In this document: positions 54,177 to 54,680 of the stretch, in pieces
Position numbering within the stretch: the first letter of the stretch is position 1
Layout of the letters: every line of letters starts with the position of its first letter
DNA from: a virus
Lineage: Duplodnaviria; Heunggongvirae; Uroviricota; Caudoviricetes
Direction: 5' to 3' (one strand)
Virus record (IMG/VR): IMGVR_UViG_3300013901_000006
Span: 15,774 to 79,773 of that record
DNA: 64,000 nt
Translations under genes and position numbers: made by a program
Notes under the pieces: model-generated
What the model saw: the letters and a program-made list of their open reading frames with translations, nothing else
What the model was told of the DNA's origin: nothing
The model's database searches: none

Positions 54177-54227
54177 GTGAATAAGTTTAATAAATTGACC
54201 TCTCTAGGGGGGGGGCTACTACGGTAG
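54177..54227 (+). CDS. Poly-G leader peptide L4 (G9 at 54207-54215), currently uncoupled
   Basis: AAGGAG SD, GTG start; reads MNKFNKLTSLGGGLLR*. G8 extends it to TAA 54292-54294, overlapping ATG 54294. Confidence 0.7.
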   Translation: MNKFNKLTSLGGGLLR

Positions 54228-54293
54228 CTTAGTTTCTATAAATCAATTTGATATTATGATTTTAGATAACCTCCCAAATAAGGAGGTTAAATA

Positions 54294-54680
54294 ATGAGTA
54301 ATTATGTAAATCTCTTAGATATTATATATCCTGTAGGAAGTATTTATATTTCTATGTCTAGTGCCAGTCCTACTGATGTCATTGGCGGCACATGGTCCAG
54401 AATAAAAGATAAGTTTTTATATGGCACAGACAATACTTCTACTGGTGGTGAAAACACTCACGCTTTAACTGTTTCAGAAATGCCGAGCCATAGCCATTCT
54501 TACAGAACCGAATGGCCCATTGCATTAAGTGACCAATCATCTAATTGGCAAATGGCAAATGGTAATCTTGGCTGGTTTTTATCATTTGGTATGTATAATA
54601 CTTCATCTATTGGTGATGGTGCGCCGCACAATAATATGCCAGCATATCAAGGATGTTATATCTATTATAGAACTGCTTAA
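54294..54680 (+). CDS. Gp10_C-like tip module M1
   Basis: LLDIIYPVGSIY...GGTW...MPSHSH...HNNMPAY...YRTA* pattern of T4 gp10 C-terminal-like fibre tip domains. Confidence 0.75.
   Translation: MSNYVNLLDIIYPVGSIYISMSSASPTDVIGGTWSRIKDKFLYGTDNTSTGGENTHALTVSEMPSHSHSYRTEWPIALSDQSSNWQMANGNLGWFLSFGMYNTSSIGDGAPHNNMPAYQGCYIYYRTA

Follow-up and report, generated by a model that had tools for sequence, protein, structure and literature searches.

The DNA analysed here is a window of 64,000 nucleotides (nt), bases 15774–79773 of a 145-kb phage record in IMG/VR (IMGVR_UViG_3300013901_000006, class Caudoviricetes); positions are those of the window, and the features described between 54098 and 54680 lie on its plus strand. 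The window contains an array of six small tandem tip genes (54294–57625), each of which matches the Pfam family Gp10_C (a baseplate/fibre head domain). The element under study is L4, a short leader open reading frame (ORF) with a tract of nine guanines (G9), which lies upstream of M1, the first gene of the array. M1 (54294–54680) encodes 128 amino acids (aa) that match Gp10_C (PF21939) over its full length with an E-value of 5e-18. Its product is similar to the C-terminal ~138 aa of a 640-aa "putative antireceptor" of Lactobacillus phage Ld3, and to the same part of Streptococcus phage tail proteins. Because of the full-length domain match and this likeness, M1 is considered a stand-alone receptor-binding head.

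The Shine-Dalgarno (SD) sequence of the leader, AAGGAG (54165–54170), lies 6 nt ahead of a GTG codon at 54177 and stays free of pairing when the fold of the entire leader is predicted; from this SD and GTG we infer that leader translation starts at 54177. Only the GTG frame enters the G tract (54207–54215), the other two frames halting immediately at TGA 54178 and TAA 54182. As sequenced, with G9, L4 occupies 54177–54227 and comprises 16 codons, encoding VNKFNKLTSLGGGLLR and then a stop 67 nt before the M1 ATG. The tract is hypermutable and sits in an ORF separate from M1, its end being 79 nt from the M1 ATG.

Tract length sets the frame in which the leader is read. Tract variants made in silico with G6, G9 or G12 stop at TAG 54225–54227, 42 nt before the hairpin that holds the M1 SD (54267–54289), and those with G7 or G10 stop at TAG 54230–54232. 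With G5, G8 or G11 the leader runs for 39–40 codons to TAA 54292–54294, which overlaps the M1 ATG (54294–54296), and the G8 peptide ends in ...LPNKEVK. Stop and start share one base in a TAATG (54292–54296) that is invariant in 18 aligned distinct variants of the standard type. A preliminary description of this DNA had placed the G9 stop at 54227, about 40 nt before the SD hairpin, and had held that G7 and G10 also stop early; both points are borne out by the sequence read and by the in silico variants. Its further claim that only G8 reads into TAATG was correct for G8 and too narrow otherwise, as G5 and G11 behave alike and the proper rule is a length of 3n+2. A fusion model, in which the leader is an N-terminal extension of M1, was rejected because no frame is open into M1. 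No minus-strand ORF of at least 30 aa overlapping the leader was found.

Tract variation and frame design among related leaders

Orthologues of L4 were retrieved with two independent exact patterns, one for the hairpin and one for the leader SD and start. This gave 44 orthologous leaders representing 31 distinct haplotypes, in large phage contigs mostly from human-gut assemblies. Leaders of the standard type align from the upstream terminator to the M1 ATG without insertions or deletions save at the tract. Pure tracts of G5, G6, G7, G8, G9, G10 and G11 occur there, with the preceding A present or absent, as do interrupted alleles (G4TG8, G2TG6, G2TG4, G5TG4 and AATGGTG5) and a fully degenerate one, GGAGTGGGG(A/T)A. 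In each of three groups the flanks are identical and the tract alone differs (G11 versus G5, A+G9 versus G9, and G9 versus G2TG4). The comparison thus shows a change of G-tract length between phage lineages of the type produced by polymerase slippage. The tract is of slip-prone length (~7 units or more), varies among near-identical relatives and shifts the ORF frame in silico, as is characteristic of a contingency locus.

By haplotype, ~10–11 of the 31 are in the frame that reaches TAATG (the coupling frame), 14–16 are in the window's frame and 4 are in the third frame. M1 is intact (126–151 aa) in all 21 readable genomes, regardless of leader frame. Identity is 93–96% in the leader but falls to 71% in the gene before it and to 64% in the body of M1, and the 78 nt from the tract to the ATG are 93% identical to the window; different M1 heads therefore stand behind the same leader. 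The sole allele that lacks a run of at least five Gs is the degenerate one (loci L038, L050, L081 and L121), and it is fixed in the coupling frame. In these loci the hairpin adjoining the tract is lost, and the SD hairpin and TAATG are intact. A few leaders are recombinant (L046/L116, L057 and L049): up to the tract their 5' half is of L4 type, and their 3' half derives from a different leader family or the L5 cassette. The exchange in L046/L116 has brought into use a frame that ends at +5 of the start of a different tip gene.

Since shuffling at the single locus was not significant (see below), a clade-wide test was made, in which all tracts of at least seven Gs in the fetched loci of the clade were clustered and the leader-type ones were analysed. 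The coupling pattern was defined as exactly one frame ending at –5 to +8 relative to the start of the next gene and two frames stopping earlier. It was found in 21 of 26 poly-G leader clusters, compared to 3.5 expected from shuffles, a count never attained in 200,000 simulated sets. After we conservatively collapsed the clusters to ~15 sequence families, 11 had the pattern versus ~2 expected. In every case the coupled stop overlaps the start, as TAATG, ATGA or ATGnnTAA. Of the 19 variable leader positions, 5 are first, 7 second and 7 third positions of codons; with no third-position bias, there is no sign of selection on the leader peptide.

Tracts of seven Gs are 19-fold over-represented in the window relative to shuffles (19 matches versus 1.0 expected). 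The 145-kb genome holds six tracts of at least eight Gs, all within fibre or tip loci and on the coding strand. On the sense strand every long tract is G and none is C: G8 has 13 matches on the forward strand of the genome and 0 on the reverse strand, and the loci of relatives, once oriented on the tip gene, hold no C runs. This bias, present even where the leader peptide does not matter, hints at an RNA-level or strand-specific constraint. In-gene G tracts were also seen immediately ahead of the conserved AHNNLPPY-type motif of tip genes, where one frame is open for 400–570 nt across the next gene (examples at L063:6660, L104:6401, L075:4216 and L018:2437).

RNA structure at the M1 start site

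The M1 SD lies in a hairpin (54267–54289) with an anti-SD arm at 54267–54274 and an SD arm at 54282–54289, the GGAGG core being at 54282–54286. The hairpin has 8 bp and a predicted energy of –11.3 kcal/mol (z-score –4.45), and none of 200 shuffles was as stable. Ranked by fold stability from –32 to +3, the M1 start is fourth of the 47 SD-bearing starts of ORFs of at least 90 aa in the window, for which the mean is –3.8 kcal/mol. The fibre-extension and tip region holds six of the seven most stable start-site hairpins, namely those at 53806, M5, M6, M1, M2 and M3. Across the 18 distinct variants 97% of hairpin pair cells are kept; changes in the 5' arm are wobble-compatible, and the closing pair is U:A, U:G or C:G.

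The fold of the whole leader suggests a second lock, in which a CU-rich element directly 5' of the tract (54197–54206) is predicted to pair with the M1 SD (P ~0.7–0.76) and the G tract with the anti-SD arm (P ~0.65–0.73). This double clamp joins 54197–54215 to 54269–54290 in L4, and its equivalent in leader L5 joins 54745–54763 to 54781–54800. It constitutes a long-range alternative to the local SD hairpin and may explain the TCT-rich stretch found before every tract. When the 5' part of the leader is masked to mimic ribosomes reaching as far as the short-frame stops, predicted SD pairing is ~0.83, and short-frame translation therefore does not free the SD.

A second, smaller hairpin (54213–54232) is anchored in the tract, its stem pairing 54213–54219 with 54224–54230 (–9.4 kcal/mol, z-score –2.69); covariation in it among orthologues was not significant. 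It carries the TAG of one short frame (54225–54227), and the TAG of the other (54230–54232) comes after. Leader-type tracts generally have a small hairpin that begins in the last Gs (in the window at 54213–54230, 54761–54784, 41971–41984, 52624–52636 and 42456–42474), with arms that vary by leader family (CTAC/GTAG, CTAT/ATAG, CTGGT/ACCAG, GGGCAT/ATGCCC and GGGGC/GCCCC). In leader L2 the tract is instead the loop of CTATG/CATAG. The 3' arm often holds the TAG of one short frame, a second stop for the other frame following it, and in-gene tracts are without such a hairpin. It could enhance slippage or pause ribosomes.

Two other start sites of the array, those of M5 (56314–56346) and M6 (57140–57170), have SD hairpins as strong as that of M1 (–12.0 and –11.9 kcal/mol) but are not preceded by a poly-G leader. 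What opens these hairpins may be ribosomes that complete the tip gene just before, which carries an in-gene G tract in its 3' region. Upstream of L4, the first 15 codons of the gene at 53761 (53761–53806) resemble a former poly-G leader; the window reads ATGGGGC (G4), and relatives have G8 to G10. By our own reading of the frames, the window's length continues in frame through the strongest start-site hairpin of the window (53777–53799, –12.5 kcal/mol) into TTG 53806. At this site one frame fuses to the gene instead of coupling to it.

A probable leader-ORF contingency switch and its alternatives

We hypothesize that L4 is a phage contingency locus that acts via translational coupling of a leader ORF, and not via the controlled gene itself, and we regard this as the probable reading. 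Ribosomes would initiate at the exposed leader SD and GTG, cross the tract and, beyond it, read in whichever frame the tract length dictates. Two of the three frames would bring them to a stop within 17 nt of the tract, 42–47 nt before the M1 hairpin. The M1 SD would then stay locked in the local anti-SD hairpin or in the clamp of CU-rich element and G tract, and M1 would be made poorly or not at all. With 3n+2 lengths (G5, G8 and G11), ribosomes would read through the hairpin at 54267–54289 and terminate on TAATG. This would unfold the start site, permit re-initiation at the M1 ATG and yield the receptor-binding head, the sequence of the leader peptide itself being irrelevant. The G9 allele of the window is in a short frame, and M1 is accordingly predicted to be low or off in this phage. 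Two hallmarks of translational coupling are found at L4: the upstream ORF overlaps the downstream start at 3n+2 lengths, and the downstream SD is sequestered.

The best matches of the phage endolysin are to phages of Gram-positive bacteria (Eggerthella, Lactococcus and Propionibacterium), and most genes of the phage are preceded by strong SDs, which together make an SD-dependent mechanism plausible for its host. When 22 kb of the window was compared with cultured phages by megablast, nothing matched, and the phage therefore has no annotated relative. An Rfam scan of 53.5–58 kb gave only snoRNA matches at chance level, which indicates that the region belongs to no known RNA family.

Several observations weigh against the coupling switch. 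The coupling frame is not rare by chance at L4 alone: when the segment from tract to start was shuffled, at least one coupled frame arose in 22% of trials (P = 0.22), and the full pattern of one coupled and two early frames arose in 11% (P = 0.11). The long frame is open in 18 of 18 distinct variants, short-frame ones included, but this too is compatible with chance (P = 0.27), as only 5% of possible substitutions would close it. The clade-wide probability is optimistic, because the leader clusters are partly paralogous. Covariation in the SD hairpin among orthologues was not significant (116 of 500 shuffles reached the score), the changes being one-sided only, so the hairpin is supported by energy and recurrence and not by compensation. 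A conserved start-stop mini-ORF, ATG-TGA (54175–54180), overlaps the leader GTG and uses the same SD; its conservation was read from eight orthologues retrieved without that region as bait. At 54257 the long frame has an ATG that lacks an SD, from which the hairpin could be opened whatever the tract, and the switch could leak if RNA polymerase or ribosomes slip on G9. The ON and OFF states are themselves assignments from sequence. Finally, the commonest natural allele is A+G9, which is in the supposed OFF frame, and interrupted short-frame alleles (G2TG6 and AATGGTG5) keep an intact M1, so M1 may not be fully silent in these genomes. "OFF" may mean reduced and not absent expression, or flipping of the switch may be frequent enough for the gene to be preserved. 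The evidence for a frame design comes from the leader family, and not from L4 alone.

Some of these points would also fit a different account, in which the tract is hypermutable and translation of M1 does not depend on the leader frame, the hairpin just keeping output low and the leader being conserved for other reasons. Tract length would then matter little to the phenotype. The abundance of the short-frame G9 allele, the intact M1 behind interrupted short-frame alleles, the non-significant frame pattern of L4 and the lack of covariation in the hairpin are all as this account predicts, and the SD hairpins of M5 and M6 are equally strong without a G-tract leader. It does not readily explain why the one-in-three design is strongly over-represented across leader families, why a pure G run is maintained in most lineages or why the fully decayed allele is in the coupling frame. 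Moreover, an SD lock of –11 kcal/mol should reduce de novo initiation by orders of magnitude (an established relation of start-site stability to translation, reportedly shown by de Smit and van Duin). We consider translation independent of the leader unlikely.

An intrinsic terminator (54098–54133), with a stem of 11–12 bp followed by T8 (–16.4 kcal/mol, z-score –5.69), lies before L4; its stem-loop (54098–54125) closes the fibre-extension gene at 53761–54090 and marks the 5' boundary of the tip-array unit, which is flanked on its other side by a second strong intrinsic terminator (57677–57706). One stem pair differs on both sides between the window type and relatives (T:A to C:G). Between the terminator and the leader SD lies a block (54134–54164) that is near-invariant in orthologues and contains TATAAT (54148–54153), and it is a possible promoter. 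A sigma-70 scan called no promoter after the terminator, and a search of the whole 145-kb genome for the TATAGATATAGA-TATAAT block returned this copy and weak matches only. The preliminary description had proposed a terminator/promoter element before M1; the terminator is real, while the promoter part found no backing in the sigma-70 scan or in repetition of the block within the genome.

The leader frame might also act on transcription. Either translation of the long leader overrides a premature terminator, as in the pil1 locus of Streptococcus gallolyticus, or an early stop leaves naked RNA open to Rho, so that M1 is silenced with or without the downstream tips; the second form is the polarity idea of the preliminary description. 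Such an effect has a published precedent of the same geometry, as the short pil1 leader ends 39 bp before its hairpin. A weak terminator-like hairpin (54213–54230) follows the tract in L4, and the short frames would leave the 387 nt of M1 untranslated, with no strong terminator in the scan between 54126 and 57677. Against this, the SD hairpin (54267–54289) has no U tract, and no terminator was called from the short-frame stops to M1. The hairpin at 54213–54230 is covered by ribosomes in all three frames and therefore cannot discriminate between them. Each downstream leader is equipped with a separate SD and start. In-frame downstream leaders occur in several genomes whose L4 is out of frame, among them the present one with its in-frame M3 leader, and would be pointless under absolute polarity. 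The host is putatively of Gram-positive type, and its use of Rho is hypothetical. Control through transcription is, in our estimate, quite unlikely, and the earlier suggestion that L4 acts with polarity on the whole tip array is supported by nothing found here.

A further possibility is that the conserved leader serves mainly as a recombination socket for swaps of tip cassettes, the G tract being a by-product or a recombination feature. This would account for the high identity of the leader compared to the flanking genes (64–71%), for the different M1 bodies behind identical leaders and for the recombinant leaders whose 3' half is exchanged right after the tract (L046, L049 and L057). It leaves unexplained the SD and start that lie 10 codons before every tract, the module of stops in two frames, the TAATG and ATGnnTAA overlaps and the clade-wide frame statistic. 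As a sole explanation it has little probability, and it is compatible with the coupling switch and not exclusive of it. That tract length tunes the lock through RNA structure, independent of frame, is hardly probable at all: for both L4 and L5 the predicted fold does join the tract to the anti-SD arm and the SD to the CU-rich element, but natural alleles from G5 to G11 occur without change in the partner arm, and a structure-only model was rejected because the predicted SD pairing is constant (P = 0.84) at every length from G5 to G12, so that tract length does not act through RNA structure.

Returning to the leader-ORF contingency switch, L4 is a good and clean instance of a recurrent arrangement of this kind, with the ON/OFF behaviour predicted from its sequence. 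Cassettes of the same design also precede other tips and fibre extensions, and each lineage would accordingly display a random subset of receptor-binding heads. We see an even chance that L4 is one copy of a portable cassette placed before each spare receptor-binding head in large gut phages, replication slippage dealing out random subsets of heads unaided by any recombinase or retroelement; this would be an undescribed general mechanism of bet-hedging in phage host range. Its parts would be an exposed SD with a short leader, a CU-rich element, a G tract, a hairpin with stops in two frames, a doubly locked start and a stop-start overlap.

Host recognition decides which gut bacteria a phage kills, and phages are known to vary it by means of invertible segments, diversity-generating retroelements or repeats within genes. 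If real, a switch in a leader ORF would be an enzyme-free addition to these, one that makes no change in the receptor-binding gene and could be duplicated in front of further tips without limit. Its state would be readable from a metagenome assembly as tract length modulo 3. This makes testable how large gut phages hedge between hosts, whether tip states follow turnover of host strains over time and to what extent coupling can serve as a heritable digital switch. For annotation, gene callers overlook small leaders of this kind, and assembly polishing may treat differences in homopolymer length as errors.

Comparison with known systems

The closest parallel is the pil1 locus of S. gallolyticus, in which a repeat lies in a leader-peptide gene; the short leader stops 39 bp ahead of a hairpin terminator, and ribosomes translating longer leaders disrupt that hairpin, giving a heritable, stochastic switch between low and high expression (Danne et al. 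2014, PLoS Pathog 10:e1003860, PMC3894217). The repeat is a GCAGA pentanucleotide on a bacterial chromosome, and lengths that are out of frame give the long leader (PMC3894217). Like pil1 (and pil3), L4 has a slip-prone repeat in a small leader ORF upstream of genes for a surface structure, with repeat number setting the leader stop. In both, ~40 nt separate the end of the short leader from a hairpin, which ribosomes on the long leader melt or, for L4, are predicted to melt. Unlike pil1, the repeat of L4 is a G homopolymer, its hairpin hides an SD, its long leader ends on TAATG, and it resides in a phage where the element is repeated before several tip genes. No terminator was called between 54233 and 54294, the hairpin at 54267–54289 being followed by AAAUAAUG and not by a U run. 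L4 thus has the leader-length-setting repeat of the pil1 attenuation type and lacks its intrinsic terminator, and it is therefore not a member of that type.

Hypermutable polyG tracts in receptor-binding genes of Campylobacter phages are published (Sorensen et al. 2021, Cell Rep 35:109214, as cited in PMC12823448). L4 resembles these phages in that polyG occurs in loci of host recognition and would give subpopulations with different receptor-binding equipment. The Campylobacter-phage tracts reportedly lie within the coding sequence and truncate the receptor-binding protein. Unlike them, the L4 tract is upstream of M1, in an ORF that is never fused to it; since it is not in the receptor-binding gene, L4 is not of the in-gene type. 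In-gene tracts do exist elsewhere in the tip array (55769).

Contingency loci have also been described in coliphages T2 and T4 (Gomez, Barrick and Waters 2025, bioRxiv 10.1101/2025.10.21.683753). L4 would share with these, and with the bacterial loci of Neisseria, Haemophilus and Campylobacter, reversible slippage frameshifts at simple-sequence repeats and a role in bet-hedging. Classical contingency loci, as far as is known, have their repeats within the gene or in promoter spacers, whereas the frameshift of L4 would be read out via a coupled leader ORF. A hairpin-locked SD that is opened by a ribosome on an upstream ORF, with overlap of stop and start, is known from the coupling of coat to replicase and lysis genes in phage MS2 and from the ermC and cat leaders. 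Those systems depend on constitutive translation or on drug-induced stalling, whereas L4 would depend on a heritable change of frame. Alternative receptor-binding ends are produced from one genome by the invertible fibre segments of phages Mu (Gin) and P1 (Cin) and by the diversity-generating retroelement of Bordetella phage BPP-1. These require a recombinase or a reverse transcriptase, whereas L4 would need no dedicated enzyme. A literature search of the searchable library for repeat-bearing leader ORFs coupled to a downstream gene found no paper with the combination seen in L4. The logic of a repeat in a leader is known from pil1; L4 is set apart by its homopolymer repeat, by a predicted read-out through SD occlusion and stop-start overlap, and by its nature as a modular phage element.

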